Source: a virus (lineage: Duplodnaviria > Caudoviricetes). Taken from it: a DNA stretch of 64,000 bases. A program made the translations under genes and the position numbers. The stretch spans positions 1 through 64,000 of the IMG/VR virus record IMGVR_UViG_3300021400_001346. The stretch is one strand, 5' to 3'. The notes under the pieces were generated by a model. The model saw only the letters and a program-made list of their open reading frames with translations, ran no database searches and was not told the origin of the DNA. Positions 1 through 64,000 of this stretch are shown here, piece by piece. Within the stretch, counting starts at the first letter, position 1, and the number at the start of each line of letters is the position of its first letter.

Positions 1-1416
1 CAAACTTTAACAGATGCTAAAAAAACACAAGCAAAAAGTAATATGGGTGCTGAACCGTCTTCATTTAGCGAAAATTATAATGATTTAACAAACAAGCCAA
101 CAATCCCAGCAACTAATGTCATCCCAGCCACTACAACAGCCAATAAAGTGTTGGTCTCTACTACAACTAGTGGAACTGCAAAATGAAGTGATTGAAGTAG
201 CGCGGGATTCTTAAAAACAAATGCAAGTGGTGTAATAAGTGTAGATACTAATACTTATATTACCAACGTCAAAACCGCCGCAGGTCCAAACATTGGTTCC
301 GTTGGAACTCCCTCTGTTACTGCAACTACAAGTGGTAATGAAACCACTCTCACCTTTAACTATTTAAAAGGTGCAACAGGTGGAACAGGATCAACTGGCC
401 CACAAGGTCCAACTGGAGCAAAGGGCGAAACTGGTGGAACTGGTTCACAAGGAAAGCAAGGTCCAACAGGGGCTACCGGTGGAACAGGTCCACAAGGTCC
501 TCAAGGTCCAACTGGTGCAAAAGGAACTGATGGAACTAATGGAAAACAAGGTCCTACAGGTGCAACTGGAGGTACTGGAAGTACTGGTCCTCAAGGACCA
601 ACAGGAAGTCAAGGTAAACAAGGTCCAACTGGTGCAACAGGCGGCACTGGAAGCACTGGCCCACAAGGTCCTACTGGTGCAAAAGGTGGAACTGGTGGAA
701 CAGGTCCTCAAGGTCCAACTGGGCAAACACCTGCCAACTATTCTATTGAAACCACTAATAATGGTATTTATATATATAACCCATCTGGACAAGCAGTTTT
801 TATTTCAACTATTGGTCCAACTGGATCAACAGGCGGCACGGGATCAACCGGTCCTCAAGGTCCAACTGGAGCAAATGGCATAAGTATTACTGGTCCTGTC
901 GGTCCTGTCGGTCCTACTGGTCCCGCAGGAGTAGCCAGTTCATCTAATACCACTTCTAAAATTTATTTAATTGGTCCTACCTATCAAGGAGGCACTACTA
1001 CTTATTCAAATAGTGGATGTTGAGAACAAAATGGTTTAGTTTTCGGTAAAAGTTTCGTATCTAATCCAAATGGTACCGCTACTGAAACTTACTCTACTTC
1101 CTATATGATGGGTTATTGTAGTAGTTCTGCGTCAACCGCAGCCAAAACAGTTATTTTACCTAATTTTACTTTGCAAACAGGTGTAGTTGTCTATGTTAAA
1201 ATGCGTTACAACAACACAGTTGCTTCCACCACTTTAAATGTAAATTCTACAGGCGCAAAAAGTATTTATAAAGTTTTTAGTAATACGGCAATGACTGCAA
1301 ATGATTCTTGAAAAGCAGGACAAGTTTGTCAATTCTATTATGATGGTTCACACTGAGTATGAATGGATTGTATCCAAGCAACTTTAAGCGGTACTACTCT
1401 TAATTTAAGAGGATAA
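1..1416 (+). CDS. Collagen-like tail fibre protein (5' truncated; TGA read as Trp)
   Basis: Frame 1 is open from base 1 to TAA 1414-1416 if TGA (184, 193, 1021, 1309 etc.) is Trp; Gly-X-Y repeat about 370-930 (GPTG/GPQG); [11 protein letters not shown] motif common in phage fibres. Confidence 0.85.
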
Positions 1417-1419
1417 TTT

Positions 1420-1911
1420 ATGCCTTTAATATATAATGGAACAACTATTACTGCAGTTACTTGGAATGGTACTGCAATAAATACTCTTACCTTTAATGGT
1501 ACAACAGTATTTACTGCAGGAGTCGCCAATATTGTTCTTAGAGATTCAAAGACTTATTGAAATAATAATATGTTATGACTTGAAGGGACCTTCTATAATC
1601 CTAATGCATCTTCAATTGAAATTAATCTCTATAACTATGCGGCTATTTTAGATACTGGTTATATCATAGAAAATGAAGATTTTGATTTCGATGGCGGTGG
1701 TCAATCTGGTTTATCATTATATATTGATGGTAGAGAGTACCCATGATATAATGGTGACACTGTCTTTACAATTCCCGCAAACTCAGAATTTTATATAGGT
1801 ATTGCTTTATACGAACAAACATTAGATTATTATAGTGCAACTAGTATTGATGAACTTGAACTACAATATGAATTAGATGGAGACCAATATAATATTTCCG
1901 TCATGCCTTAA
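1420..1911 (+). CDS. Hypothetical tail-fibre-associated protein, 163 aa (TGA=Trp)
   Basis: ATG 3 nt after fibre stop; MPLIYNGTTITAVTWNG...; open to TAA 1909-1911 with internal TGA; followed by terminator. Confidence 0.7.
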
Positions 1912-1940
1912 CCCTAGTCAACTCTAGGGTTTTTCTTTTT
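1911..1940 (+). terminator. Rho-independent terminator
   Basis: accctag-tcaact-ctagggt hairpin followed by T-tract. Confidence 0.75.
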
Positions 1941-2004
1941 CAAATTTCGTGAAACCCAAAAAACTTTAATATACTGTTACTAACTAAAGAAAGGAGATGT
2001 TACC

Positions 2005-3177
2005 ATGTCTCAACATCCTTATAAAATATGTATTTACGCTATTTGTAAAAATGAAGAACAGCATATTTTTGATTGGCTATCAAGTTTAGCAGACGCAGAC
2101 TATATATGTATTTTAGATACAGGTTCCACCGATCAAACAATCAATATCATCAAAGATTTTCAAACTAATCCAACATATACCACTCCGATTATTTTGGCAC
2201 AACAAACATTCAACCCCTTCCGTTTTGATGTGGCTCGTAATGCTGCAAGACAATTAATTCCAGACGATGCCGATATTTGTTGGTGTCTAGATATAGACGA
2301 AAGGCCAGTAGTCGCCAATTGGGCAGAATTAATTCGTAATGCTTGAACAGATGATTGCAAACAACTTAATTATAAATTCGCTTTTAGTTTAAAAGAAGAT
2401 GGCACACCTGCTTCAGTAATTTGGTATGATAAAATCACTTCAAATGCTAAAAAGGAATGGTACTGAAAGAGTCCAATTCACGAACGCCGCATTTATAATG
2501 GCACCGATCCATTTAAAGCAAAGAGTTTAAATACAGAAGAGCCATTAGTTTATCACTATCAAACACCAAACCCAGGCAATCGTGACCAATACATAAATCT
2601 CATTTTAATGCGTGCAGATGAAGAACCTAATGACCCATACGGTTTACAATTCTTACTGATTGAATATACAAACCGCTGCATGTGAAGAGAAATGGTCGAT
2701 GTAATTACTAATCGTCTTATTCCAATTATCAATAGCGACACCTGTGAATTTTCCGGCATTGGTAGAGAAGAATGCCTACAAAATGCCTATCGTTATCTAG
2801 CATTGGCTTATCGCCAACTCGGAAAAAATTTTGAATGCTACATAGCAATCGATCGCAGCATCGAATCGGACCCAACTTCACTACCATCTTATCTTGTAAA
2901 GGCCGAGTACGCCCTACAAGACCAAAAGCCAGACGTAACTATTCGAACAATTTTACAAGGCTTAGAAAAAAGTTATCGTCGTTTAAACTGGCAAGAGCAT
3001 GAAGATGATTGAAGTGCTAAACCATTTATTCTTCTCACTCAAGCCTATTACATGACTAAACAATATATGCAAGCCTATTTCGCCGCGCTAACCGCAAGAG
3101 ACTTAGGTAAACCTGAAGACACCTACCTACAACACAACGTAAAGGTCTGTAAAGCCGCAATGGATCAGGAGCATTAA
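2005..3177 (+). CDS. GT2-family glycosyltransferase with TPR-like C-terminus, paralog 1, 390 aa (TGA=Trp)
   Basis: ICKNE, LDTGSTD, FRFDVARN, LDIDE, SPIHE motifs; ORF-track fragments 2005-2346 and 2692-3012 are in one frame joined by TGA; aaggag RBS. Confidence 0.88.
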
Positions 3178-3178
3178 T

Positions 3179-4219
3179 ATGGAACGTAAACATTTTATAG
3201 TTATCTACACCATTTGCAAAAATGAAAGAGCTAATTTAACTAAGTGATTGAACAGTCACAGCGGAGCAGATTTAATTGTCTTCTGTGATAGCGGTTCAAC
3301 AGATGGCACTTATGAAATACTTTGTGGTCTTCATACTCTTGAGCCAAATAAATTCCATGTTATACAATATCAAGAGCTTCCAAACTATGATATGTTTTCT
3401 TTTAGCCATGCACGTAATCAAGCATTACATAAAGCAGAAGAATTAACCCCTCAATACAATGTTTATCATAAGCCTGTTATCTTCTGTTGTTGAGATATGG
3501 ACGAATTTATTCAAACCCGTCTTGCTATACCAGCTTATGACGTTTTAGACCAAGTATGGATTAATGATAACTCTGAACAAGTTCACATTACCTTTGAAGC
3601 AAATGGTAGTACAGGCGCAGTTGCTACAAAAGTTCATAACAATTTGCCATTTGAATGGCGTTATCCTGTTCATGAGGACTTATTCCTTTACAATCATCAT
3701 CATAGTAACTATGTTAACAATCGTGTCTTTTTACCAAATGAAATTTATTATTTACACGAACAAGATTTTACTTCGTCAAATCATCGATATGGGAAGCATT
3801 TAAGATACGCAGACAAAATAGAACCTTTAAATATACATACCTTGCGTTATTTAATGTGGGAAGACTTTTTAGATAAGGATGTAAGTGCCTGCTATAAACA
3901 TGCACTCTCTTTTATTTATCTTGCTTATTCGCAAAAAGACTCAGAGTTTTATTTAAGCTATGATATTATACAACAAGCTCTATGATATTTATATAATTGC
4001 AGTTATGGTAATGAGCAATTCGCATGACTGACACAGCTTTATAATATCAGCCGACCACCTTACAATCCTGCTCTCCGCTATATTCATAAACTTTATTATC
4101 AAGCACTCATGTCTCTTAATAAAACAGATGAAGCAGAAAAGGTATTACAAGAATATAAATCCATTACTTATACGCATCACTGGTTAGACGACCCATCTCT
4201 ATATGAAAGGAACGATTAA
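3179..4219 (+). CDS. GT2-family glycosyltransferase, paralog 2, 346 aa (TGA=Trp)
   Basis: MERKHFIVIYTICKNE, CDSGSTDG, FSHARN, DMDE, YPVHE; single frame to TAA 4217-4219. Confidence 0.85.
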
Positions 4220-4220
4220 T

Positions 4221-5372
4221 ATGTCAGATGAAAAGAAAAAATATAAAATAGCCATTTATACCATTTGTAAAAACGAAATCCATAACGTCGCCGCATGGTT
4301 AGAATCCATGAAGGATGCCGACTACATTTGCGTCCTTGACACCGGCTCTACTGACGGCACTTGGGAACAACTTCAATCTTTCGCGGCCGGCAGTTACTCG
4401 GGTAAGCTAATTATTCGACAAGCCATCATCAATCCTTGGCGTTTCGATGTGGCACGTAACGAAGGCATGAAAGATATCCCCGCCGACGCCGACATCCTCT
4501 TCAGCACCGACCTCGATGAACGTTTAGTCCCAGGTTGGTATGAAGCCACTCAAGCCGCGTGGACTGATGACACCGCGCAAGGTTGGTATCTTTACGCATG
4601 GTCACATAATTCTGATGGCACACCTGCACGTGTCTTCTGGTATAATAAAATGCACGACCGCAATTGGGAATGGCGCAGTCCAGTTCACGAAAACTTATGG
4701 CCAACCGACGGCCGCGACCCAGCTAACGTTAAGCGTATTAACATCAGCAATAAGATTATGTTACACCACTACCCAACTCAGAAAGAAGGACGTTCCAATT
4801 ACTTCCCACTTCTCAAGTTGCGCGCGCAAGAAGAATGGAACGACCTATACGGCTGTTCATACTTGGCGCACGAATATTACTATCAAGGTCCAAGTGAATA
4901 TGCCAACGGCATTGACTTCATTCATTCACATCTGCTCGCCCTCGTCAAGAATCATAAAGACGATTCGCTTTTAGAAAGCGACGCACATATGTTCTGCGGC
5001 CTCATGTACGCCGGCCTCAATCAACTTGACGAAGCCGAAGTTGAATTCCGCATGGGTATTGCCATCGCACCTACCTTTAGAGAAAATTATATTCAACTTG
5101 CTAACATCTACAACAAGCAACAACGTTGGACAGATGCTATTAATATCATTAACGAGGCGCTCATTAAAACACGTCACTACTACAGTTGGCTCGAATGGGA
5201 CAACACATGGACTTGATATCCTTATGACTTGCTCAGCCAAGCCTACTTCTATAGCGGCGCCATCGACGCGGCCTACCATTATGCCAAGTTAGCACTTGCC
5301 CTCAGCACCAATGATGAGCGACTCCGCAAAAACTGCGAACTCATTCAAAGTTACTTAAAACAAGGCAACTAA
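4221..5372 (+). CDS. GT2-family glycosyltransferase with TPR, paralog 3, 383 aa (TGA=Trp)
   Basis: ICKNE, LDTGSTDG, WRFDVARN, DLDE, SPVHE; reads through TGA 5214 to TAA 5370-5372 directly before a terminator. Confidence 0.9.
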
Positions 5373-7568: not shown

Positions 7569-7789
7569 ATGTGTACTTACCTCCGATTAAACAAAATGGC
7601 TAGTTTCCACCCTAATGAGGGACTTCATCTTGCGATGCGGAGATAAGGAAATCTTATCACTAGTTATAGATAATATAAAATATAAAAAGGGATTTGTCAA
7701 GAACAAATCCACTAGTTATTTTTATTGGCACGGGCTGTAGGACTCGAACCCACACCTACCGTTTTGGACACGGAATCTTTACGGTTTTG

Positions 7790-8355
7790 CTTACCACTAC
7801 GATTTTCATCGCCACTTCTGTTTGTGGTCTGGACTATATCTTTACCTTGCATTTCTGTTTAGGTAGAGGATTATCTAGTCTCTACGGGTGAACTTATCTT
7901 CCCTCGGTGTTACCAGTTAAGGATTCACCGATATCATCCTCTCCACTATTATCGTTTCCAATAATAGGCTCCATGAGATCAAATGCATTTTTATAAGGTT
8001 GTAATGTTGTATAACCAATCGAACTAGAATATTTATTAGAAAATTCTACAGGAACGATATAAACATCTTCAGTTTCAATATCTACTCCAACAAAGAAATC
8101 AATTACAGAGCCATCATATCTAAAAATTTTATATTGACCTTGATTATGACTAATTTTACGAACAGGCAATTGTTTAGCTTTATTTAAAATTTTAATTTGT
8201 ATTCTAACTAAAACTGGCCCTTTGATTGCAATACAATCAATTTTAGTATTTTCTAATATTGGTACGTATAAATCTCATTCTCTTTTTAACATTTGTTTTT
8301 CAAAAATATTGTATCCTAATTTTCCTTTTGCTATTGTATCCATTTTATCTCCTTA
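7790..8355 (-). mobile_element. Group I intron in tRNA anticodon (after U34), 566 nt
   Basis: Core motifs on minus strand: ATCGGTGAA, CGTAGAGACTA, AAGATATAGTCC; P1 GTCTT/GAGAT with U.G at splice site; terminal G at 7790. Confidence 0.85.
7894..8343 (-). CDS. Group I intron-encoded PD-(D/E)XK homing endonuclease (I-Ssp6803I-like), 149 aa (TGA=Trp)
   Basis: MDTIAKGKLG...KIDCIA...RIQIK...IDFFVGVD; aaggag RBS; one internal TGA; C-terminus overlaps intron core. Confidence 0.8.
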
Positions 8356-8390
8356 AAGACCGCTGTGCTGCCAATTACACTAAGCCCGCA

Positions 8391-8756
8391 TTATTTACGT
8401 CTCTTCACTGTTCTATGATAACCACCCTTGCGGCGCTTGGTGACGGCCGCCTTACGTTTATAAGGCACCCACTCCAAATTATAACCATGTGGCGCCATCG
8501 TATTCAGATGGTCAATTCAGTACTTCTCACGTTCATTGAGTTGACTGAGCGCGCAAAATTCCACCACGTCTCATCTAAAGCCGTGGCCGCCAGTTTTGTC
8601 CCAGTCGGCCTGTAGCGCCGCGTTAGGGTGCTTGCCGGAGTAAAGTGCCGAAAAGTGCTCTTTGCGGCGTTCAAAGACATTCTGGGATTGACCAACGTAA
8701 ACCTTATTATTATTTAGATTAGTAATTTTATAAATGCCGCTAGCAGGAAGCGTCAT
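8391..8756 (-). CDS. GIY-YIG endonuclease, 121 aa (TGA=Trp)
   Basis: GIYKITN...VYVGQS...R...H; LNEREKYW...GYN continues through two TGAs to TAA. Confidence 0.85.
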
Positions 8757-9049: not shown

Positions 9050-9196
9050 TTATATTATTCTCCTTATTGCTATTATTATATCTTATCACCAGCGGTTTGT
9101 CAATAAAATTTTTAAAGCCCAATTATTATAATTGTGTTTTTATGCAAAATCCGTTATATTAATTAAGTAGTTATTATAACTAACGGAGGATTCGTT

Positions 9197-9946
9197 TTGG
9201 CAATTTTAGGTATTTCTTTAAAAAACAATAAAGAACAACAAGAGCTAGTACGATTAATTAATGAGAATAATCGTCCTATAGTAATTTGCATCGGCAATGC
9301 GGGAACAGGTAAAACCTTTACCACTATTGCGGCGGCACTGCAATTGAAACAGGAGAAAAAATATAAGAATATAGTTTATGCTCGTAACCCTATTCCAATG
9401 GGCTATGATATGGGCAGTTTGCCAGGTGGACTTGATGAGAAGTATAGTCCTTATTTGGCGCCGCTTTATGACAACTTGGAAAGTATTGCGCGTGTAAGTG
9501 AAGATAAGCTTAATGTGAATGATATGGCCGCGAAGATTGAAGTTGAGCCTATTGCCTTCTTGAGGGGCCGCAGTTTTGAAAACACTGTCTTAATTATTGA
9601 TGAAGCACAAAACCTTAGCCTTACGGAATTAAAGACTATTCTTACTCGTGTTGGAGATTATAGTAAAGTAATTTTACTAGGTTCAATGAACCAAATTGAT
9701 GATTGAAGACAACGTAAACAAGACAAATGTGATTTTCAAAAGGTTATTGACAAGATTAGTGACTTGCCTTATGTCGGGTTTGTAGAACTCACTAAATCTA
9801 TGAGATCTGATTGGTGCGTTGAACTCGACAATTTATTGGGTGAAATTGATAAACCTATTAAATACACCCTTACTTTTGGTGATGGTGAAAATGAAGGCTC
9901 TATGGAAGTTACCAATGACGAGCTATATAAATATTGCAAACGTTAA
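9197..9946 (+). CDS. phoH: PhoH-like ATPase, 249 aa (TGA=Trp)
   Basis: GNAGTGKT, LRGRSF, IIDEAQN, GSMNQID; two ORF-track pieces joined at TGA 9704. Confidence 0.92.
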
Positions 9947-14095: not shown

Positions 14096-14109
14096 AATAA
14101 TATAGTTTA

Positions 14110-14642: not shown

Positions 14643-14757
14643 AATTCTTATTCTCCTTATAAATCATTATACTACATATTCTTCATTAAGGCAACAAAAA
14701 AGTTCCTAACTAAGCTAGGAACTTATGTAAATGAATATTAATACTAATTATTTAAAA

Positions 14758-16760: not shown

Positions 16761-16765
16761 AACTA

Positions 16766-46813: not shown

Positions 46814-46816
46814 CAA

Positions 46817-48625: not shown

Positions 48626-48638
48626 GAGGACGATTATT

Positions 48639-50186: not shown

Positions 50187-50188
50187 AA

Positions 50189-51694: not shown

Positions 51695-51715
51695 TAGAAA
51701 TGAGGTAAAAATATT

Positions 51716-52210: not shown

Positions 52211-52228
52211 TAGTGGAGGACGATAACA

Positions 52229-53233
52229 ATGAATGCACAATTAAGAAAAGCTTTAATCGCTGCCTATAATGGTCAAGCAGTTGCTGAATTCTCCGCAGAA
52301 GATGTCAACGCAGCAGCTATCAAAGGTATTAAAGAAGAATTAAATTTAACAGACGAATCTACATACAGAGATTTTAGAAAAGTTGAAAATGATGCATTTG
52401 CATTAATCGAAGAAACAGTTGATGAAATCTTACCAAAGAAATTAGAAAACGTTTTAGGTAACTTTGCTGAAATCAAATCTTTCCCAAGAGATGCAGAAGT
52501 AGTCTTCAATATTGAAAGAATTGGTAAAAATAGAGCAAAACTTACAATTAGTAAAGGTGCTCGTGGTGGTATTTACAGAGCAGCTAGATTAGGCAACAAA
52601 TACTTCTCACTTGATGTATCTGTCCAAACAGTTGCAGTTTATGTCACTTTAGAAGAAATTCTCTTAGGCACAATGTCCTTAGCAGAATTATTCAATAACA
52701 TTTTAGAAGGCTTCGAAGAAATCGTTTACAAAGAAGTTTTCAATGCATTAGCAACAGGTACTGCAGCAGTTGGTTCAAGAGTTCCTGGTTCAACAACAAC
52801 CACAAAAGCCGCTTTAGGTGGAGCAATTGACCAAGTTATGCCATACGTTAAACAATATGGTGTTCCAACTATCTTCGGTTCTTACGCAGCACTTAGTAAC
52901 TTATCAAATGATGCCGCTCAATATCACCCAGAACTTTTAGATTCTGCTGATAAGAGACGTTATGGCTTCATTCAAGAATATAAAGGTAGCCAAGTTGTTG
53001 AACTTCCTAACTATTTAGTTGATAGTTCCAACTCCGCATGGTTCTATGAAGAAAAATATGTCTTCGTTCTTCCAAGTGGTGCAAAACCAGTTAAAGTTGC
53101 TTTAAAAGGCGATATGACAATCATCAAAAATACACAAGCAGTTGGCTCTGAAAAATGGGAAGCTTCTAAGTTAATTGGTGTTGGTGTCGCAATGGCAAAC
53201 AACTTCGCAGTTCTTGAAGTTACAGACTTATAG
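52229..53233 (+). CDS. Major capsid protein
   Basis: Position, size, strong RBS, codon bias, downstream terminator at about 53260-53292. Confidence 0.85.
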   Translation: MNAQLRKALIAAYNGQAVAEFSAEDVNAAAIKGIKEELNLTDESTYRDFRKVENDAFALIEETVDEILPKKLENVLGNFAEIKSFPRDAEVVFNIERIGKNRAKLTISKGARGGIYRAARLGNKYFSLDVSVQTVAVYVTLEEILLGTMSLAELFNNILEGFEEIVYKEVFNALATGTAAVGSRVPGSTTTTKAALGGAIDQVMPYVKQYGVPTIFGSYAALSNLSNDAAQYHPELLDSADKRRYGFIQEYKGSQVVELPNYLVDSSNSAWFYEEKYVFVLPSGAKPVKVALKGDMTIIKNTQAVGSEKWEASKLIGVGVAMANNFAVLEVTDL

Positions 53234-53305
53234 TTTTTAACTAAACTTAATATCCACGGGAGGGGAGGGTTCCCTCCTCTCCTTTATTTTTTATAGAAAG
53301 GAGAC

Positions 53306-53809
53306 ATGTACATGTCTGACAATAAAAATTTTAAGCTTATTAAAGTTACACCAAATAATTTGTTTTTAAGAATTCGTCCACTTGGTATGAATGGAGTTGA
53401 AAGAGATTTCTTCTTAACAAATAGAAATCCAGTTCAAGTTTTGCCAATGGATTGGGCTCTTGGTATTTTCCAAGATAGCGGATTGTTTGAAATGTATCAA
53501 AAAGGTTTATTTACTTTTGACGATAATGAAGCCGCTGTTCAAGCCGCTTATGAAAAAGGTGTTTACTTTGCTGACAAATTAGAATTTACACCAGCAGATC
53601 CTAAATTAGCCGAACAAGTTTTAAATGTTTTAAAAAGCGGAAATAGAGCCGCAATTTTAGACGCTATTAAAACTCATGGTAAAACATTTGTTCAAAACGT
53701 TGCAGTTCGTAATTTAGCTGACTTAACACAAGGTGTTGTTTCTATGCTAGAAAGTACACTTAAAACTCAATTAGTAGTTGACGATTTAGCTGGAGACATC
53801 GAAGACTAA
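53306..53809 (+). CDS. Hypothetical head-completion-region protein
   Basis: Position. Confidence 0.6.
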   Translation: MYMSDNKNFKLIKVTPNNLFLRIRPLGMNGVERDFFLTNRNPVQVLPMDWALGIFQDSGLFEMYQKGLFTFDDNEAAVQAAYEKGVYFADKLEFTPADPKLAEQVLNVLKSGNRAAILDAIKTHGKTFVQNVAVRNLADLTQGVVSMLESTLKTQLVVDDLAGDIED

Positions 53810-53832
53810 TTTACTACAGGAGGTAGAGTAAT

Positions 53833-54354
53833 ATGCAAAACTGGGATGACATCCTTTATCCATCATTTAGAGCTACTATTCGTGGTGAGTATTATGGCAT
53901 TATTACTCAAGACGATATCGACGAAGAGTGTTTTTTCCTTGCGGAAAGAGCTGTCGCCGCGTTTAAATTTCCTCATATTTCTACTGACTATACAATCTTC
54001 TATGCGATAAGAGATGCCGACAATGGCTTAGAAACAGTTGACGCAGACACTGAAGGAGCAATCCCTCATGCTTACTTCAATAATGACCTTACTTATGCCG
54101 AAATCGAAATCATTATCGCATGGATGAAAGTTTATTGGGCAGAAAATCAAATCTCTAATGCCGATAACTTTGACGACATCTATACAGATGTTAATATTAA
54201 GACTTATAGCCGTGCCAACATGTTAGATAAGGCTACAAACTTATATAAAACTTATCGTGAAAATGCTCGTGAACTTGAAAATCGTTATAGTCGTGTTAAC
54301 GTTAAGAAAGCCCCAAGTATGGGCGATATTAATGAGGACGATGATAATGAATAG
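53833..54354 (+). CDS. Putative head-tail adaptor
   Basis: Position and helical pattern. Confidence 0.6.
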   Translation: MQNWDDILYPSFRATIRGEYYGIITQDDIDEECFFLAERAVAAFKFPHISTDYTIFYAIRDADNGLETVDADTEGAIPHAYFNNDLTYAEIEIIIAWMKVYWAENQISNADNFDDIYTDVNIKTYSRANMLDKATNLYKTYRENARELENRYSRVNVKKAPSMGDINEDDDNE

Positions 54355-55192
54355 TTTTGAACGTTTTCGTAATCGTCAAAAACAAAGAATAGCAGCAACT
54401 GACCAACTTAATAGTCAATTTATTTTTAAAGGTTATCCATCTATTAAAATCGAAAATCAAGACGGCATGTTAAAGCAAGCCGCGGTTGTCAACAAGCAAG
54501 AGAAAGATCAGGCTTATATTTATACACAACTTGATGACCCACTAACCATTGGTTCTGTTTGGTCCGCAAAAGGACTACATTGGTTGATTTCTGAAGAAAT
54601 TATCATTATTAAAGACGTAAAATGGCATAAGTATCTCGCCTTTTTGTGCAACGTTGAACTTGATGATATGTGGGGATATTTTGTTGGGCCTGAAAAGTCT
54701 TACATCAATATCGCATTGCGTGAGAACGTAATGATTGAATCCTTACAACATCCTCTTCTCATCTTACCATCTGATGCATTATCATACGAAGACAAAATTA
54801 TTATCAAAGGGAGACCTTGGATAATACAAGAATATGATAGCATTAGCACCGAAGGAATTACTTATTATTCTTTGCGCGCAACTACTGTTTCTAAAGAAGT
54901 CGCGGCTGAACATAAAGATGAAGAAGTTTATGTTGAAAAGCATGTTGACAACTTAATCATTCCATCTTTTGAAGATGAAGACGCATCTGATTTTAATGTT
55001 AAACCTCAACAACAAATTACTATTACAACCGTTGGTGGATATTTTAAATATTCAAACAAAAGTATTAAAGTAATTGCACATACAAGCACATCAGTTATTT
55101 TTTATCTACCTTTTGGTGTAGATAAATGTTCCATTGAAAGAAAGGACAGTGAAGGCAATATTATTGAAGAAACCTATACTGTGGTAGAATAA
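54347..55192 (+). CDS. Putative head closure/neck protein
   Basis: Start MNSFERF overlapping upstream stop; position. Confidence 0.55.
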   Translation: MNSFERFRNRQKQRIAATDQLNSQFIFKGYPSIKIENQDGMLKQAAVVNKQEKDQAYIYTQLDDPLTIGSVWSAKGLHWLISEEIIIIKDVKWHKYLAFLCNVELDDMWGYFVGPEKSYINIALRENVMIESLQHPLLILPSDALSYEDKIIIKGRPWIIQEYDSISTEGITYYSLRATTVSKEVAAEHKDEEVYVEKHVDNLIIPSFEDEDASDFNVKPQQQITITTVGGYFKYSNKSIKVIAHTSTSVIFYLPFGVDKCSIERKDSEGNIIEETYTVVE

Positions 55193-55193
55193 T

Positions 55194-55700
55194 ATGAAAA
55201 GTTTAAAAAATATTAATAAGGCGGTTTTTGAAATCGTTACTTTGCTTTTACAAAACGATAATATTAAGAAACTTTTGTTTTGGGACTCCGCCGATGCACT
55301 TAGTTTAGAGGTGCCAGACATTTCTATTCAACGTTATATTGATGATAAATACATCTGGCTTTATCCCGCCGTTGAAACTGGCATTCAAAATTTTGAACGC
55401 AATACTTTCTTAATCGTTAATTTGGAAGAAATTAATTTAAGAGGTATGGACGCAAACACTAGCGCAAGTGGAGCAATTTATGTAACAACTGATGCAAAAC
55501 ATTCTCTCCTTGATAATAATCAACTTAGATTATTAGTATTAGCAGATGAAGTTCGACAATCTTTAGATAATCATAAATTATCTGCGGCTGGTGAATTGCA
55601 AATCAATTCTATCCGTCAACAAATGATTAGTGAATTTCGTAGTGCTTATAGAATTTCTTTTAGTTTGTCAGACCAATCAACTAGAAAGGCGGAAATTTAA
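55194..55700 (+). CDS. Putative tail completion protein
   Basis: Position. Confidence 0.5.
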   Translation: MKSLKNINKAVFEIVTLLLQNDNIKKLLFWDSADALSLEVPDISIQRYIDDKYIWLYPAVETGIQNFERNTFLIVNLEEINLRGMDANTSASGAIYVTTDAKHSLLDNNQLRLLVLADEVRQSLDNHKLSAAGELQINSIRQQMISEFRSAYRISFSLSDQSTRKAEI

Positions 55701-56431
55701 TGCAAGATAATTTTGATTTATTCCGTCTTTTTTTAACTAAAGAAGTTACGATTTATAGTGACGACGGAGCGGCACTTCTTTCAATGAAATGTCCTTCTAT
55801 TCGTGATACATTAACAGAACATTATTTAAATCTTGCATATCAACTATGAACATCTGATATGGAAGAAATCACGAAGAAAACTGGATTACAAGTAAAAAGT
55901 TCTTGAGATTTGTTAACAACCATCTTATTTGATTTAGGCAAATATCGTCAATTCGCCAACTTATATTCCTGTTCTCTTCAAACACTTAAATTTCTTTTTA
56001 ATGACAAGGTATCTATCAATTTAGGTCTTCACACCCTAACCATTGGTGATGTTATTATGACAGAAGAAATTTGAGATTATGTAATTTATCTATTAAAATT
56101 ATGTTATGGGGTGAAGGTTTCAAAACCTATTCACTTTAATACAGACGAGGAACGCCAATGATATTTGGCTCAAAAGAAAAATGAAAACCGCATTCGTGCA
56201 TTAAGAGAAAAAGGCAGTAAAGATTCTCAAGATGCCATGCTTAAGATTTTTCTTAATATTACTTACGCGTTTCCTAATTTTACTTTTGATTATTTATTTG
56301 ATCAAACCATGGCTCAAATTCACTGACTCCAAAGCAAAGCCGCGGGAGCAGTGTCTTATGAAGTAAAAGCGCAAGCTTATGCGGCTGGTAATATGAAAAA
56401 GGGTTCACAACTCGATTTCTTTATTAAATAG
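55700..56431 (+). CDS. Hypothetical virion-module protein, 243 aa, absent from ORF track (five TGA=Trp)
   Basis: TAATG overlap; open to TAG 56429-56431; fills the gap exactly. Confidence 0.8.
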
Positions 56432-56443
56432 AGGTATAAAAAC

Positions 56444-57397
56444 ATGGCTTTAAATTATACAAGATTAGGCGGTAGTAGCGCTAATTTCCAACAAATGATT
56501 CAACGTTTTGGCGTCGTTACCGTTATGAACGCTAAAGTCTACGAACCATTCGAAAACGAAGAAATCAAAGATCTTCAAGCTGATGCAATTATTGCAAAAT
56601 ATGATAGCAAAACTGAACTTTGTAAATTAGATACTTTAAAAATTGCTAATGTTACAGAAGAAGGTCCAACTAAAACAGTTACTGGTGGTCAATATAACAA
56701 TCCATTAATCAAATTTGGTAAAACCGCAAGACTTGAAATGCAAGACGCTTTAGGTAATGCCGCAGCATTAGATGCTTTATGTGGTAGCGTTGCTGAAGTT
56801 GATGCATTAGTTAATGGAAAAATTGACTATAGTACAGTTTTTGCTCTTCATTTTGGTTCTGATTTCTCTGGTCCAAAATGTATTATTGGTGAGTCTTTCT
56901 TTATCGATCAAAAGAGCGGACAACAAGTTCCTGTTAAAATTATTTTCTATCAATTCCTTCCAGATTCATTATTTAATTTAACACAAGATGCTGAAGGAGA
57001 TGCAACTGTCTTCGATATGAATGGTGACTTATTAGCTACTGATATTACTATTAAAGATATTAATGGCAGCAAAATTCCTTATGGTGTTTTCTATTCAATT
57101 GTTGATGCAGAACCTAAGACTTCTTGGTTAGATAATGATTATTATACTTTAGAACAACAATCAACTGAAACTGAGGCCAATGGTATTGTAACTGTATATA
57201 GTGTCCATATCACAAACAATACTCGTAGCCTACTCTTAGATGGACAAGCAATTGCACCAGTTGAGACAGAAACGCCAACTCCAGTAGCTAGAATCCAAGA
57301 TCCAGATACTTTAGAAGACTTAGCTAGCGGAAAATTAATTATCACAGATATCAATGGTAAAAATATTAAGATGATCGTCCCACTTGTTTTTGCCTAG
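56444..57397 (+). CDS. Major tail tube protein
   Basis: TGGQYN.PLI...MQDAL...EGDATVFDM pattern; terminator at about 57421-57450. Confidence 0.75.
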   Translation: MALNYTRLGGSSANFQQMIQRFGVVTVMNAKVYEPFENEEIKDLQADAIIAKYDSKTELCKLDTLKIANVTEEGPTKTVTGGQYNNPLIKFGKTARLEMQDALGNAAALDALCGSVAEVDALVNGKIDYSTVFALHFGSDFSGPKCIIGESFFIDQKSGQQVPVKIIFYQFLPDSLFNLTQDAEGDATVFDMNGDLLATDITIKDINGSKIPYGVFYSIVDAEPKTSWLDNDYYTLEQQSTETEANGIVTVYSVHITNNTRSLLLDGQAIAPVETETPTPVARIQDPDTLEDLASGKLIITDINGKNIKMIVPLVFA

Positions 57398-57512
57398 TAA
57401 TCTTTAACATTTCCATTCAGGCTCATAGGGTAAAACCTATGAGTTTTTATTTGCCAAAATGAACAAATTTGATTATAATATATTTACACACTAGCGTGTA
57501 AAGGAGATTTAT

Positions 57513-57722
57513 ATGGACGATAGTATCAAAGTATATTCTTTGCCAACATGCGGCATGTGTAAAATGTTAAAGCGCTCTTTAGACGCACACAACATTCCTT
57601 ACACCACATGCGAAGATATAGACATCATGGCTAAAATGAATATCAAAAGCGTACCCGTCTTAAGCGTCAACGGGACACTTTACAATTTTAAAGACGCACT
57701 TGACTGAGTTAATAGGAGATAG
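57513..57722 (+). CDS. nrdH: Glutaredoxin-like NrdH (TGA=Trp near C-terminus)
   Basis: CGMC, SVPVL; ends ...ALDWVNRR. Confidence 0.85.
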
Positions 57723-57726
57723 CATC

Positions 57727-59574
57727 ATGAAACCAGACACAACTGAAAACAAAATTGCATTTATGCAAAAGTACATGGTTGCCCAAAATGCGGCGACCGG
57801 TAGTGACGTTGACTCAAATGCCAACGTTGCTAATAAAAACATCGCAACCTTATTTGCCGAACTTCCTAAAAAAGACATTATTGCACTTAATCGTGAATTA
57901 ATGCGCATTAAACTTACAGAACGTTTTGGTAAAACTCTTGCCGAACAATATGAAAAAGATTTAGCACATCATATCATTTACAAACACGATGAAACATCAA
58001 TCTATCCATATTGTTGTTCAATTTCCCTTTATCCATTCTTACTTGATGGACTTACTAAAATTGGAGGCTCTTCAACTGCACCAAAGCACTTAGATTCCTT
58101 CTGCGGCGGCTTTATTAACTTAATGTTCTTAGTTGCTGGCCAATTTGCAGGAGCAACCGCCACACCTGAATTCCTCACCTACTTCGATCACTTCGCGCGT
58201 ATCGACTATGGTGAAGATTACATTAGCCATCTTGACGATGTAGTTGAACATTTAAAGAGCGGCAAAATTACTTTGCGTGAAAAGATTTATCATTACTTTG
58301 CTCAAGTAGTTTATACAATCAATCAACCTGCGGGCGCCCGTGGCTATCAAAGCCTTTTCTGGAACATCGCATACTTTGATAAAGACTACTTTGCCTCAAT
58401 TTTTGAAAACTTCTACTTCCTAGATGGCGATGCACCAAAATGGGAAACTACAAAAGAACTTCAAAAACTCTTTATGAAATGGTTTAACCAAGAACGTTTA
58501 AAGAGTGTTCTTACCTTCCCAGTTGAAACCGCTAATATGCACACAGTTGGCGGCAAATATTCTGATACAGAAATGGCAGACTTTTTTGCTCAAATGTGGG
58601 CAGAAGGTGCATCCTTCTTCATGTATCAAAGTGATAGTGTAGATTCACTTTCATCTTGTTGCAGACTTCGTAACGGCATTGAAGATAACACCTTCTCATA
58701 TACACTTGGCGCCGGCGGCATTGAAACTGGCTCTAAAGGTGTTATTACTCTCAACCTTAATCGTATTGTTCAAGATTGGTCTAAATCTACTTCCGACGAC
58801 TTAAAAGAATATTTAACTGTCATCGTAAAACGTGTTCATCAATACCTCGATGCCTTTAATGACATCATCTGGGATTATAAGCGCGCGGGATTATTAACTA
58901 TCTATAACGCCGGATTCATCGACCTTGACAAGCAATACCTTACTATTGGTATTAATGGTTTCGTTGAAGGTGCTGAATTCTTAGGCATCCCAATTAATCC
59001 AGACGACGCCGCTTACCAAGACTATGCTAAAGCCATTCTTGAAACAATTAAAGACCTCAACATCGCGGCACGTACTGAACACTGCAAATTCAATACAGAA
59101 TTCGTTCCTGCCGAATCATTAGGTGTTAAAAATGCAAAATGGGACCGCAAAGATGGCTATGAAGTTCCAAGAGATTGTTACAACTCTTATTTCTACATCG
59201 TTGAAGACCACGATATTGACCCAGTAATTAAATTCCGCTATCAAGGAATTAAGTTCACCGGATGCTGTGATGGCGGCAGTGCCTTACACAACAACCTCGA
59301 TGAACATCTCAGCGCGGCGCAATATAGACTTCTTATGGACATTGCTATCGCCGAAGGTTGTAACTACTTCACTTACAATGTCATGAATACCATCTGTAAT
59401 CATTGCGGTCACATTAGTAAGCATACCTTTGATAAGTGTCCAAAATGTGGTTCAACAGATGTAGATTATGCAACTCGTGTTATTGGATATTTAAAACGTA
59501 TTAGTTCATTTAGCGCGGCTCGTCAAGCAGAGGCCGATCGTAGAGCATATTTGGGGTTAAAAGAAGAAAAATAG
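57727..59574 (+). CDS. nrdD: Anaerobic ribonucleoside-triphosphate reductase
   Basis: IYKHD, YC, SCCRL, PAE, CNHC/CPKC, TRVIGY. Confidence 0.95.
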   Translation: MKPDTTENKIAFMQKYMVAQNAATGSDVDSNANVANKNIATLFAELPKKDIIALNRELMRIKLTERFGKTLAEQYEKDLAHHIIYKHDETSIYPYCCSISLYPFLLDGLTKIGGSSTAPKHLDSFCGGFINLMFLVAGQFAGATATPEFLTYFDHFARIDYGEDYISHLDDVVEHLKSGKITLREKIYHYFAQVVYTINQPAGARGYQSLFWNIAYFDKDYFASIFENFYFLDGDAPKWETTKELQKLFMKWFNQERLKSVLTFPVETANMHTVGGKYSDTEMADFFAQMWAEGASFFMYQSDSVDSLSSCCRLRNGIEDNTFSYTLGAGGIETGSKGVITLNLNRIVQDWSKSTSDDLKEYLTVIVKRVHQYLDAFNDIIWDYKRAGLLTIYNAGFIDLDKQYLTIGINGFVEGAEFLGIPINPDDAAYQDYAKAILETIKDLNIAARTEHCKFNTEFVPAESLGVKNAKWDRKDGYEVPRDCYNSYFYIVEDHDIDPVIKFRYQGIKFTGCCDGGSALHNNLDEHLSAAQYRLLMDIAIAEGCNYFTYNVMNTICNHCGHISKHTFDKCPKCGSTDVDYATRVIGYLKRISSFSAARQAEADRRAYLGLKEEK

Positions 59575-59575
59575 T

Positions 59576-60040
59576 ATGTTAAAATACGATTCTACACTAG
59601 TCACTTTTACCGAAGTGCCTGATGAAATTTCTTTATGTTTTAACATTTCCAACTGCCCTTGTCATTGCCAGGATTGCTTCGAACCTTGGCTTAGAGAAGA
59701 TCGCGGCGACCCATTGACTTTAAAGGCAGTGTGCAGCGAATTGGAAAAACATCCTCATGTAACCTGTGTATGCTGGATGGGAGGAGATGCAGATTATGAT
59801 GCATTAATCAGACTATCAACTGCTTTAACATTTGTTATGCCTTCCTTAAAAATTGCTATGTATAGCGGCAGACCTGAAATGTCATTTCCTCTCGCCGATT
59901 ATCTTGACTATTATAAAATTGGCCCTTATATGCCGCAATATGGTCCGCTTAATAAAACTACCACCAATCAACGTTTTTATAAAAAGGTAAACGATAATTG
60001 AACTGATATTACTTATCGTTTCCAAGAAAAGAAGGATTAA
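59576..60040 (+). CDS. nrdG: Anaerobic RNR activating protein (TGA=Trp)
   Basis: CPCHCQDC, MGGD, KIGPY, TNQR; reads through TGA 59999. Confidence 0.92.
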
Positions 60041-60124
60041 TTCCTTCTTTTTTCTTTATGCTGGAAATTGATAATTTCGTTTTAGCTGGTTATACTATGA
60101 CTAGAATTTGAGGAATTATTTTTT

Positions 60125-60826
60125 ATGGAAACTTATAAAATCGGAAATAAAATCAAATGTACAATTAGTACATATGCGCCAATTACTATTGGGGATACGC
60201 AATTACTCTACGATCAACAACCTTACACTGTATTGAATGAAGTTGAAGCAAGATTAACTTTTGACGATATCGATACAGTAGGACGTAGTGTCTTTAATCA
60301 ACTCGTTTACAACAATGCAAATTTACGTTCAATTTCATTTTCTGATGTAACACTCAATAATAAAATTTTGAATTTAATTTTCCATAAAATTGACGCAAAA
60401 TTATGCCGCAAATCAGAAAATTGCAACTCAGAAGATAAAATTTTATATCTTTCTACTGGGGCAGACACTATTTACCAAGTATTCATTTATGACGCTGATG
60501 GTCAACTCGCGGCCGCATTTGGCTCATATGACAATCCAGATGAAGGAGTACAATTGCCTGAGGAAGTTGAAGATGGTAATTACATTATCTTTTATTCAGT
60601 ATTTAGCAATTTAAGTTATGAATTTAAAAATAATCCAAACAACTATTTTACTTTAGATTTAGAAATTACTGGAAATAAAAATGATACTACTCATACAATG
60701 TTTATACATCTTGATAAATGCGGATTACAAATAGATAAAAATATGGTCTTTAGTCGTAACGCTAATACAGTTGATTTACGCTTTACGATTATTGATAATA
60801 ACAACAATTATATTGCATTAGAATAG
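60125..60826 (+). CDS. Hypothetical tail-region protein
   Basis: Beta-rich ORF resuming the tail module. Confidence 0.6.
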   Translation: METYKIGNKIKCTISTYAPITIGDTQLLYDQQPYTVLNEVEARLTFDDIDTVGRSVFNQLVYNNANLRSISFSDVTLNNKILNLIFHKIDAKLCRKSENCNSEDKILYLSTGADTIYQVFIYDADGQLAAAFGSYDNPDEGVQLPEEVEDGNYIIFYSVFSNLSYEFKNNPNNYFTLDLEITGNKNDTTHTMFIHLDKCGLQIDKNMVFSRNANTVDLRFTIIDNNNNYIALE

Positions 60827-60840
60827 AAAGGAGTCGCAAT

Positions 60841-61185
60841 ATGAATAATCAAGAATTACAACAAGCAATTCAAGAAATTTTAGATAAAGACAACTACTTT
60901 GATGCTATTGAAGCAGCAAATGAGTTTGAAAAAGAATATAAAAATAGTGAATTTTTTAAGAAAACTAAAAAGCCTTTAAAAGAAGTTTTACGCGAAGCTA
61001 AGGTTTTCTATACATTCAACTTTAAAAAGTTAGGTGAAAAGGTTCAAACTTTTATTAATGAACTTGACGTTAGTAAACTTAACTCTTTATTTGACCAAAT
61101 CGCAGCCACTTTTGGTCAAGAAAATCAAGAAATTAATTCGCAATTAGAAAGTTTAGCAGATTTTAAAAATATTATTGGTAAATAA
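60841..61185 (+). CDS. Putative tail assembly chaperone
   Basis: Helical protein directly before tape measure. Confidence 0.5.
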   Translation: MNNQELQQAIQEILDKDNYFDAIEAANEFEKEYKNSEFFKKTKKPLKEVLREAKVFYTFNFKKLGEKVQTFINELDVSKLNSLFDQIAATFGQENQEINSQLESLADFKNIIGK

Positions 61186-61205
61186 TTTTTACCTGGAGGG
61201 AGGCT

Positions 61206-64000
61206 ATGGCTACAGACAATGAAATTAAAATTACATTAGAAGCTGCAAAATCAGTTAGAGACACCATCAAACAAGAAGGTGGTTTTTCTGGTAGAAAAGG
61301 CGAAGCCTCATTAGATAAAGTTAATAATGTTATTAAGACTATTGAAAAATTAGACCCTTCAAAAACTGACCTATTAAATAAAGAATTAAAAAACTTATCT
61401 TCTTTATTATTGAATGCATCTAAATATACTAAAGGAGTTAATTCTGACCTTGCGCAAGCAGTTACCAAATTACAAGAATTAAAAACTCAACAAAAGGATT
61501 TACAAAAAGAATTACGTGAGGCTTATAAAGCCCGTAAACAATCTATTGAACAATTAAAAGAAGATAAAGAAATTAGTAAATATACCTTTAGAAGTAAAAA
61601 AACAGGTGAAAATGTTTCTTCTTATAAAACAATTTCTGCTTTACATCAAGAAGGAAATCTACAAATTTATAATCAAGCGGGAACTCTTTTGAAAGGCGCT
61701 GCCGCAGACACTGTTTATCAAAATAGTTTTGGACAAGCAGACCTTGCCAGCCAACAAGTTGAAGCATTAAAAGAAAAACTTCAACAAAGCAAAACAAGTG
61801 CTGAACAAGTACAACTTCAAGTTGACCAATTAGAATTACAAGCAAAAGATGGAAAAGCTATTGCTGAAACACTTAAATTTGCTGGACAAATAGACAAAAT
61901 GACTGAGCCACCTGAACAAGATGTCGGTGGATTAGATACTGATGATATTAACTTACAAACTAATGCCATTGACAAACAAAATACTTCTCTTGGTAAAGCA
62001 TTTAAGCAATTTTCTATTTATGCAATTGCTTTAAGAACAGTTAAATCTGCTTTACGTGAAGCCACTCAAACTATTGCTCGTTTAGACCAATATCTTACTG
62101 AACAAGCAATGGTTACTGGTAAAACTCGTAAAGAAACTTATCAATTGCTTGAATCTTACCAAAGCATGGCAGGATCTCTTGGCACCACTACCAAAGAAGT
62201 TGCAGAAGTTACTACTCAATTCTTACGTCAAGGTAAAAGTGTTCAAGACTCTCTTAAATTAACAGAAGCCGCAATTTCTGCCGCAAAAGTTGCAGGTATT
62301 AGTGCGACTGAATCTGTTAACTATTTAACCACCGCTTTAAACGGTTTCCAATTAAGTGCGGATCAAGCTATCCGTGTTTCTGATAAATTCGCCGCAGTCG
62401 CTGCAACCGCCGCTACATCATACGACGAAATTGCTATTGCATTAAGTAAGGTTGCTGCACAAGCCAATCTTGCTGGTATGTCTATCGACTATACAACTGC
62501 CCTTTTAACAAAAGGTCTTGAAACAACTCGAGAAGCGCCAGAAACAATTGGTACTGCACTTAAAACTATTATCGCTCGTATGCGTGAGCTTTCCGATTAT
62601 GGTGAAACTCTCGGCGGCGATACTGATATCAACAACGTTGAATCACAATTGGCATATGTTGGTATTCAATTACGTGATAATAATGGAGAATTACGTTCAA
62701 CTGAAGACGTTTTAAATGATTTAGGACAAAAATGGGATACTTTAAATAGTAACCAACAAGCGGCTGTTGCAAAAGCACTTGCTGGTACACGTCAACAATC
62801 ACGTTTAATCGCTATGATGTCTGATTATGAACGTGTTCTTGAATTACAACAAATTTCTGAAAGATCTGCAGGTGCAACTGTTGCACAAATGGCAACCTAC
62901 CTTGAAGGTATGGAGGCCGCAACAAATCGTGTTCGTGTTGCATGAGAAACCATTATTACTACTGTTGCTAACAATGATTTAATTATAGGCTTAGTTAATA
63001 TTGGAGCTAATATATTAGACAGCATAAATGGTATCCTTGGAACTATGCCAGGTATGATTGCGGCCGTTACAATGTTATCTATACTTGGTTTAAATATTGT
63101 TGGTAACAAATTACGTGAATATCAAATTAGTAAAATACAAGCCAATTTAGACTTACAACGCGCTCAAGCTGACAATAAGGCTAATCAAGGACAAATTCGT
63201 GCAAATATTATTCAATTAGCACAAGAAAAGAAATTACAAAATGCTCAAGCAATAACAACAAAATTAACAGAAGCAGAAACTGCAGCTAAAATGGGAGATT
63301 TAGCCCAAGCTAAAAAATTAACTGCTGAAGCTAAACTTTTAAATACTGAAGGTGATGACCAAATTAATCAGCAATTCGAACTTTTAGAAGGTTTTCAATT
63401 ACAAGCTGATAATTTGGCTTTACAATCTTCTAATCTTTTAGGTCTTGCTGGAGCTTGAAGTGGTATTTTGACAATAGTTAATGCGATCAATACTGCATTA
63501 GGCATTGGCAATCTCCTTCAAATGGCAAGAGTTGCTTTAAAAGGTGCAGAAAATAAAGAAGATAAAAAAGCAATTGCTAACACGATGTTAAAAAATAAGG
63601 CAGAACTTAAAGGTTTACCTGGCCTTATTGCTAAAGCTTATGCTAAATCTGTTGCAAGTTTAGGACCAATTGCTGGCTCTATTGCATTTGCGTCTATTGC
63701 GGCTGCAATCACTGCCTTAGGAGTTATGGGTGGTATTGCAATCGCTGGAGGATTTAAACAAGCGGATCCATTAGACGATATTAATAAAACTTCTAATTCT
63801 ATTTACCAGCTTAATAAATCTACAACCGCTATTAAATCTACTATTTCTTCTTTTGAAAAGTTAGATGAACATATTATTAAAACTAAAAAAGATGCAGAAG
63901 ATATGGCTACCGCCCTCGAAGGTGCAGCAGATAAATTATCTTCTGATACTGAAGGTACTCTTCACAATATGTTAGGTCTTCGTGCCGGACAATCTGCACA
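61206..64000 (+). CDS. Tail tape measure protein (3' truncated; TGA=Trp)
   Basis: TP901-type core (FLRQG, TREAPETIGTALKTI, LAGTRQ); continues through TGA 62943 and 63456. Confidence 0.92.

Follow-up and report, generated by a model that had tools for sequence, protein, structure and literature searches.

How a phage can carry TGA, a stop codon in the standard genetic code, inside its own genes is the question raised by a 64,000-nucleotide stretch of Caudoviricetes DNA (the window), the first 64 kb of the IMG/VR virus record IMGVR_UViG_3300021400_001346. The record is a single contig of 115,739 bp with a CheckV completeness of 100% and a GC content of 37%. A first-pass annotation of the window had proposed that TGA is reassigned to tryptophan and used unevenly across gene classes, and had named two explanations beforehand: a host that itself uses translation table 4 (code 4), or a timed switch in a host that uses the standard code (table 11). 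Here, we find that TGA use depends on gene class in three diverged phage genomes and that the phage appears to encode its own suppressor, a tRNA(UCA) interrupted at the anticodon by a predicted intron. We favor the timed switch in a standard-code host because replication genes lack TGA in all three genomes, TGA is under-used relative to other A-ending codons, the phage has its own tRNA(UCA), and host-type promoters lie before TGA-free genes. The timing itself is a proposal read from these sequence patterns.

A megablast search of 20 kb against a collection of named phages gave no DNA-level match. The large terminase (TerL; 46817-48625, + strand, 2 TGA and 2 TGG codons) is 29-35% identical to the TerL proteins of large Bacillota siphoviruses (Geobacillus E3, Alicyclobacillus, Brevibacillus, Bacillus, and Lactococcus phages), which points to a host that is probably a member of the Bacillota. 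Eight IMG/VR relatives share 73-81% TerL identity, and two complete relatives, G001 (118,402 bp, with terminal repeats) and G002 (119,619 bp), were compared over their whole length. Genes were called under table 4, yielding a set of 108, and TGA and TGG codons were counted for each gene and block (given below as TGA/TGG).

Tryptophan at in-frame TGA codons

Replacing table 11 with table 4 raises the mean length of open reading frames (ORFs) from 190 to 255 amino acids and the greedy coding density from 0.78 to 0.87, and it joins genes that are otherwise fragmented; making TAG or TAA a sense codon instead does not lengthen the ORFs. Family matches run across the TGA positions, in agreement with the read-through claimed initially. 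The match in the PhoH-like gene (9197..9946, + strand) covers residues 10-209 and its one in-frame TGA, at codon 170, while that in the third glycosyltransferase covers residues 15-382 with a TGA at 338. Matches in the portal (48639-50186, + strand, 2/2) and the tape measure (from 61206, + strand, 3/5) span residues 34-510, with TGAs at 98 and 400, and residues 256-896, with TGAs at 580 and 751, respectively. A gene that had been missing from the ORF track (55700-56431, + strand) encodes 243 amino acids with five TGA and no TGG codons and has orthologs in two relatives. This ORF is real. The label "protease" for a 501-residue ORF (50189-51694, + strand, 1/2) found no confirmation, as no family matched.

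Alignments identify the residue inserted. Three paralogous glycosyltransferases (2005-3177, 4/6; 3179-4219, 4/4; 4203-5372, 1/16; all + strand), whose phrog_13126 match spans TGAs, had been offered as internal proof of tryptophan, and four columns of their alignment do have TGA facing Trp. Opposite the TGA codons of the window, the eight relatives carry TGG 30 times, TGA 19 times, TTT or TAT seven times, and other codons three times; TGA codons of the relatives fall on a window TGG 44 times. TerL codon 311, a TGA in this phage, is Trp in two phages that use the standard code, Geobacillus E3 and the Alicyclobacillus phage, and codon 428, also TGA, is Phe or Tyr there. Glycine (code 25) and serine were ruled out, with no GGN and just one or two TCN codons opposite TGA in the eight relatives. 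TGA positions in a UvrD-like helicase lie outside the stretches aligned to solved structures and are hence uninformative. The reading of TGA as Trp is therefore not overturned by homologs, in which TGG and TGA dominate and Gly codons are absent, and as a conclusion from comparative sequence data it is solid.

TGA use depends on gene class

The concentration of TGA in virion and glycosyltransferase genes, first suggested by inspection, withstands block counts and statistical tests: class-dependent TGA use is real and conserved across the three diverged genomes. The replication block (77.9-93.7 kb of the record; Pol III alpha, RecJ, DnaB, GyrA, and GyrB) has TGA/TGG counts of 0/55 in this phage, 0/56 in G001, and 2/57 in G002, where both TGAs lie in an inserted 67-amino-acid ORF that has no ortholog. 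Virion genes (45815..64000, + strand, continuing past the window to 76136) have counts of 27/76, 67/33, and 65/54 in the same order. Elsewhere in this phage, the early/tRNA region at 14.1-45.7 kb (14100..45700, - strand, 33 genes) has 5/77, the tail fiber and glycosyltransferase block 18/27, and the right arm 36/48, the last including a holin, a RuvC-like resolvase, the UvrD-like helicase, and two ORFs of ~560 amino acids with nine TGAs each. Among the lysis genes, the holin has one TGA and the adjoining ORF has 3/1. Replication and virion genes differ in this phage (Fisher test, p = 3e-6), in G001 (p = 4e-19), and in G002 (p = 6e-13), and replication plus early genes differ from the rest of this genome with p = 5e-13. 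The gene-level heterogeneity was reached in 0 of 5000 permutations.

Replication proteins are 48-74% identical among the three genomes. At their orthologous Trp columns we count 74 TGG/TGG pairs and none with TGA, versus 31 TGG/TGG, 48 discordant (54%), and 10 TGA/TGA columns in virion genes. Pol III alpha has 23, 26, and 25 TGG codons in the three genomes and no TGA.

Single genes refine this partition. Ligase (15654-16760, - strand) and phosphatase (29398-30204, - strand) use only TGG, as reported at the outset (0/11 and 0/8). The first-pass annotation had also seen one clear internal TGA between 14.1 and 44.1 kb; in fact, 14.1-45.7 kb holds five in-frame TGAs, and the TGA at 43166-43168 in this early region is crossed by a PHROG match. 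The capsid-like gene (52229-53233, + strand, 0/2) and NrdD (57700-59574, + strand, 0/7) are both TGA-free here, as claimed, but only the capsid is so in all three genomes; NrdD has four TGAs in G001, so the earlier gene-by-gene list is only partly a property of gene class. Within the late classes, too, TGA use is heterogeneous (0 of 5000 permutations). Expression level alone does not account for the unevenness: it adds a second layer, seen in the capsid, but cannot explain a TGA-free Pol III alpha with 23-26 TGG codons.

TGA is not a free synonym of TGG

Among Lys, Glu, Gln, and Leu (TTR) codons, the A-ending share is 79-88% in every block of all three genomes. TGA, by comparison, supplies 0-3% of Trp codons in replication genes and 6% in early genes; for virion genes, its share is 26% in this phage, 67% in G001, and 55% in G002. 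Because this share (0-67%) falls below the A-ending bias everywhere, TGA is never a free synonym, which argues against a code-4 host. A plain host Trp codon should track compositional bias; TGA is instead barred from one gene set and tolerated in the other, as competition with a release factor predicts. Neither a release factor (PF00472) nor a tryptophanyl-tRNA synthetase (TrpRS; PF00579) was found in the three genomes.

The 108 called genes end in TAA (65) or TAG (43), and none requires TGA as its stop. A mixed code in which TGA is a real terminator of early genes was considered and rejected, since TGA occurs among the last three codons of two genes versus 1.0 expected, which is no excess. 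Four ORFs have TGA as their last, second-to-last, or seventh-to-last sense codon directly before TAA or TAG (14328, 31054, 42047, and genome position 115057). These ambiguous TGAs could be either early stops with a back-up stop or terminal Trp codons, and their count is not above chance.

A tRNA(UCA) gene split at its anticodon

ARAGORN and Rfam together identify 31 tRNAs covering all 20 amino acids, in an array at 17906..27869 (- strand). Trp is represented only by a CCA anticodon (27309-27383), and neither program finds an uninterrupted tRNA with a UCA anticodon in the 115.7 kb. A default ARAGORN run missed Val-TAC (25882-25952), Met-CAT (27016-27089), and Asp-GTC (27708-27778). G001 and G002 each have one 97-nt tRNA(tca) outside the tRNA array, and a BLAST search of this genome with the G001 gene returns two pieces, 8397..8353 (91% identity) and 7789..7724 (97% identity). 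They outline a split tRNA(UCA) gene, the putative opal suppressor, at 7726..8389 (- strand) with a 5' exon at 8389..8356 and a 3' exon at 7789..7726. Joined, the exons form a 98-nt molecule with G73 and an encoded CCA, which ARAGORN classifies as tRNA(tca) and which shows compensatory stem changes relative to G001. A tRNA(UCA) is thus encoded by the phage itself, hidden by a predicted anticodon intron. Looking for the suppressor locus of the relatives through the neighboring 96-amino-acid protein gave no matches.

The 566-nt insert (7790..8355, - strand) lies between anticodon positions U34 and C35, and we infer that it is a group-I-like intron whose splicing is predicted. A U ends the 5' exon and can pair with intron G5 in a 5-bp P1, and the last intron base is G. 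The Rfam group I model (Intron_gpI, RF00028) matches over its full length at 7990..7808 with 26.7 bits (E 1.9e-4), and matches the intron of a relative with 19.8 bits; it is the best-scoring family in both, but neither score reaches the gathering score of 50. Run jointly on four intron loci, Rfam gave no match at E <= 1e-3. The insert contains a gene for a 149-residue PD-(D/E)XK endonuclease (7894..8343, - strand; phrog_5018), which matches PF11645 with 45.5 bits against a cut-off of 26.1. Its Shine-Dalgarno sequence, AAGGAG, overlaps the proposed P1. Since codon 23 of this gene is an in-frame TGA, its product would need the very suppressor that its own intron interrupts.

Similar introns occur in other phages. 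A pattern joining the 3' core of the intron to the 3' exon, run on IMG/VR, recovered 32 loci, 16 of which are introns at U34|C35 in four distinct tRNA(UCA) genes on other phage contigs. The introns measure 341, 346, 568, and 597 nt, the 346-nt form being present on 12 contigs that range from 27 to 174 kb; those of 341-346 nt have no ORF, and exon joining restores a tRNA(tca) in three of the four types.

The extra arm resembles the tRNA-Trp anticodon loop

In the variable-arm position, the joined tRNA(UCA) carries an extra arm, CCGU-GUCCAAA-ACGG, with a 4-bp stem and the loop GUCCAAA. The anticodon loop of Escherichia coli tRNA-Trp is CUCCAAA, and the TrpRS identity set consists of the anticodon and G73. 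The loop of the extra arm matches U33, C34, C35, A36, and A37 of tRNA-Trp. We scanned IMG/VR with a pattern whose only constraints were a UCA anticodon loop followed, after a long gap, by the T-loop and GCCA, and obtained 37 unique, ARAGORN-supported long-arm tRNA(UCA) sequences. The extra-arm motif is UCCAA in 35 of them and UCCAU in two, and all 38 unique long-arm phage tRNA(UCA) sequences examined have a UCCA(A/U) loop. Most sequences place the motif in a loop of 7 nt (CUCCAAA, GUCCAAA, UUCCAAC, and similar), and nine have it in a somewhat larger one. The closing stems vary by lineage: clustering at 75% identity gives 17 groups, and there are 21 different inner stems. On bacterial genomes, the same pattern gave 121 long-arm UCA matches, mostly selC-like, and the hairpin is present in about three.

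Two tRNAs with both arms lie on contigs binned as bacterial, one in a Phoenicibacter metagenome-assembled genome (6.6 kb) and one in Parabacteroides goldsteinii (90 kb). These contigs may be phage or prophage DNA, in which case they would hint at hosts for other lineages of this class of tRNA. As a clue to the host of the present phage, the ~3 two-armed tRNAs from GTDB, including those on the Phoenicibacter and Parabacteroides contigs, were set aside, because they belong to a different tRNA lineage and allow no host call.

The extra arm might act as an identity mimic, presenting the host TrpRS with its main identity element so that a tRNA that reads UGA can still be charged; we regard this proposal, drawn from the loop match, as evenly balanced. 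We are equally divided on whether this phage and many others rely for their code switch on an undescribed kind of suppressor, in which a UCA arm is combined with a copy of the tRNA-Trp anticodon stem-loop and a subset needs splicing between U34 and C35. Full-text searches and the papers of Borges et al. (10.1101/2021.08.26.457843), Seki (PMC12636597), Mukai (PMC5389517), and Krahn (PMC7609411) and that on the theta-ribozyme (PMC10879173), a coverage that is incomplete, yielded no description of the extra-arm mimic. Within that literature, both the intron-split suppressor and the CCA extra arm appear to be undescribed.

Strong promoters lie before TGA-free genes

We defined strong promoters as sigma-70-type matches at no fewer than 11, that is, at least 11/12 positions. 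The genome has 43, versus 7.35 in shuffled sequences. Of these, 35 are minus-strand sites at 7.6-44.3 kb, with ~31 in the early/tRNA region; five precede replication-side genes and one precedes NrdD. Virion and fiber/lysis modules have essentially none, and almost all strong sites stand before TGA-free genes. Across 5-kb bins of this phage, promoter count and TGA share are negatively correlated (Spearman -0.61, p = 0.0017). Some sites are arranged in tandem, at 37963/38063/38168, 42544/42653, and 44184/44274. The phage also encodes a TGA-free sigma-70-family factor (34675-35502, - strand, 0/4), which could serve late promoters.

A perfect sigma-70 consensus, TTGACA-17-TATAAT, at 9103..9075 (- strand) heads a unit made up of the 96-amino-acid ORF, the split tRNA, and a terminator-like hairpin at 7710..7690, which closes the unit. 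The intron-less tRNA(UCA) of G001 is preceded by an 11/12 promoter at a distance of 44 nt.

Other features of the genome

The window opens with a TGA-rich late block (1..5372, + strand), supported by PHROG matches and the paralog alignment, that comprises the tail fiber (43-1416, + strand, 6/0; its PHROG tail-fiber match spans TGAs), a 163-amino-acid ORF (+ strand, 3/1), and the three glycosyltransferases. A 537-amino-acid ORF without a family match (12482..14095, - strand) has 5/6. NrdG (59576-60040, + strand, 1/2) follows NrdD in the virion module. Past the window are two large collagen-repeat proteins (93941-95773, - strand; 107759-110734, + strand) that are paralogs of the tail fiber; both are TGA-free but almost without Trp, and one lies at the edge of the replication block. 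A xanthine/uracil permease-family gene (genome 96158-97432, - strand; PF00860, E 1e-54) has one TGA and orthologs in G002.

Two further RNAs lie within the limits of the tRNA array. A phage-encoded tmRNA at 17984-18368 (- strand; RF00023, 72.2 bits; gathering score, 47) was missed by ARAGORN, which detects one in G002, and a full-length ROOL RNA lies at 23878-24455 (- strand; RF03087, 215.5 bits). The + strand of the genome contains 65 copies of the word CCGTCT, 50 of them in a 4.7-kb early region (38863-43549), and its reverse word occurs 13 times genome-wide.

Discussion

We consider it likely that this phage infects a standard-code host (probably of the Bacillota) that has release factor 2 (RF2), and that the phage itself changes the meaning of UGA. 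Host RNA polymerase would start at consensus sigma-70 promoters and transcribe the early region with the tRNA array and the gene of the phage sigma factor, as well as the replication genes and the operon of the suppressor. Proteins of this first stage, written without TGA, would be made correctly under the host code. A UCA anticodon would arise only once the group-I-like intron had been removed from the suppressor precursor; the mature tRNA(UCA) would then be charged with Trp by the host TrpRS, an enzyme we propose because the phage encodes none, and would compete with RF2. Virion, fiber, glycosyltransferase, lysis, and some DNA-processing genes, which have in-frame TGAs and no host-type promoters, would yield full-length products only after the suppressor had accumulated. 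Suppression would stay less efficient than ordinary decoding, which would explain why late genes, too, under-use TGA and why the gene for the most abundant product, the capsid, avoids it.

Several observations weigh against this scheme. The perfect promoter of the suppressor suggests that it is possibly made from the start, in which case the delay may come from accumulation and splicing. The correlation between promoters and TGA is weak in the relatives (rho -0.27 in G001 and -0.05 in G002). Two genes with TGA, the UvrD-like helicase (three TGAs) and a 563-amino-acid ORF (nine TGAs), share the strand of the replication block and are located upstream of it, so the partition is by gene and not simply by strand block, and some genes of DNA metabolism carry TGA, namely the UvrD-like helicase, the RuvC-like resolvase, an exonuclease subunit, and NrdG. 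The group I match is below the Rfam gathering score here and in the other loci. A cost of suppression that involves no clock accounts for part of the pattern, such as the TGA-free capsid. The placement of the host in the Bacillota draws only on TerL relatives at 29-35% identity, and host code, splicing, charging enzyme, and timing are all read from sequence.

That cost can be cast as a full alternative, in which the suppressor is made early, TGA is decodable but inefficiently so throughout infection, and it is purged where a truncated or scarce product hurts most, in the replisome and the capsid. The perfect sigma-70 promoter of the suppressor, the under-use of TGA even in late genes, the capsid without TGA in three genomes, and the heterogeneity inside the late classes all fit such a model. 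It sits poorly, however, with the total exclusion of TGA from low-abundance replisome proteins such as Pol III alpha, with the many small early genes that are TGA-free too, and with the coincidence of exclusion and host-type promoters. We think it unlikely as the explanation, although the cost and the timed switch are not mutually exclusive. More doubtful still, and in our judgment quite improbable, is a code-4 host of the Mycoplasmatales type, in which TGA would be an ordinary Trp codon throughout and its unevenness a matter of module ancestry or chance. The TerL relatives do infect Bacillota, a phylum with code-4 lineages, and in a phage with tRNAs for all 20 amino acids the tRNA(UCA) could just complete a set matched to the host; but a TGA share of 0-3% in replication and 26-67% in virion genes contrasts with 79-88% A-ending codons in the other NNR pairs. 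Moreover, TGA is absent from 74 replication Trp columns, whereas 54% of those in virion genes are discordant, which excludes chance and a recent import of modules.

Least probable of all, to the point that we give it hardly any weight, is that a phage or host tRNA-Trp(CCA) reads UGA by near-cognate wobble and the interrupted tRNA(UCA) is a dead relic. The phage does have an intact tRNA-Trp(CCA), whose D-stem contains a U11-A24 pair; A24 is, we assume, the state of the Hirsh suppressor in E. coli, but U11-A24 is presumably also the ordinary state in Bacillus. CCA tRNAs that read UGA and have a 4-bp anticodon stem have been described (PMC13092985, NAR 2026), whereas the tRNA at 27309-27383 has a normal 5-bp stem. 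Moreover, both split exons are 91-97% identical to the intact ortholog and differ by compensatory stem changes, and an intron-bearing tRNA(UCA) persists in 16 other contigs, including those with ORF-less 341-346-nt introns, which fits a functional gene.

The timed switch that we favor shares elements with several known systems. Code-4 bacteria use TGA for most of their Trp codons, whatever the gene. As in these bacteria (Mycoplasma/Spiroplasma type) and their phages, a tRNA bearing the anticodon UCA would insert Trp at UGA; unlike there, early and replication genes exclude TGA and the remaining genes under-use it. Group I introns interrupt the anticodon loops of bacterial tRNAs, as in cyanobacterial tRNA-Leu(UAA) and in a tRNA-fMet whose intron encodes I-Ssp6803I, and we take insertion at U34|N35 to be the tRNA-Leu(UAA) intron site. 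The phage insert likewise lies in the anticodon loop, follows a 5' exon ending in U, and ends in G, and its endonuclease, like I-Ssp6803I, is of the PD-(D/E)XK class. It departs from these introns in that it interrupts the gene of an opal suppressor carried by a phage, that the Rfam scores (26.7 and 19.8 bits) are below threshold, and that splicing is predicted. With tRNA-Sec and allo-tRNAs (Mukai et al., PMC5389517), the tRNA(UCA) shares its anticodon, a long extra arm, and G73, and ARAGORN labels it "SeC". Its acceptor and T stems, however, measure 7/5 in the ARAGORN drawings, not 8/5, 8/4, or 9/3; the UCCA(A/U) extra-arm loop occurs in 38/38 phage versus about 3/121 bacterial matches; and the decoded positions follow the evolution expected of Trp rather than that of Ser or Sec. 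Identity as tRNA-Sec was rejected because the 7/5 branch differs from the 13-bp acceptor/T branch (8/5 in bacteria).

By sequence, the phage fits the known phages that have recoded the TGA stop to Trp, in which a partition between early and late genes has already been described for gut phages. Borges et al. (10.1101/2021.08.26.457843; published 2022) reported TGA-recoded "Agate" phages with genomes of ~127 kb and predicted Firmicutes hosts, in which TGA is depleted as a stop codon and enriched in a group I intron endonuclease; suppressor tRNAs were detected in just 35% of code-4 genomes. The present phage (116 kb) and its two complete relatives (118-120 kb) are near that size. They are also alike in low GC, loss of the TGA stop, and a division between structural and lysis genes with TGA as Trp and a replication machinery in standard code; the intron endonuclease has an in-frame TGA in both, and the predicted Firmicutes host corresponds to the Bacillota suggested here by TerL. 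This likeness is one of genome size, code, and gene pattern only. The intron-split suppressor and the extra CCA arm set our phage apart from that account, which mentions neither.

The recoding partition is established for gut phages, and the main contribution of this genome is a further, clean example in which the pattern is repeated in three genomes. In addition, a comparison of the TGA share with the A/G bias of other codon pairs can tell a code-4 host from suppression imposed by the phage, with no knowledge of the host needed. If the split suppressor is what we propose, intron-split genes would escape tRNA finders, which would explain part of the ~65% of code-4 phages that have no detectable suppressor. 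An intron-split, two-armed suppressor would offer testable answers to how UGA can be decoded without a visible suppressor and how a UCA tRNA could stay a substrate of TrpRS, and it would be relevant to the mining of phage tRNAs for genetic-code expansion, as in the work of Seki et al. (PMC12636597).

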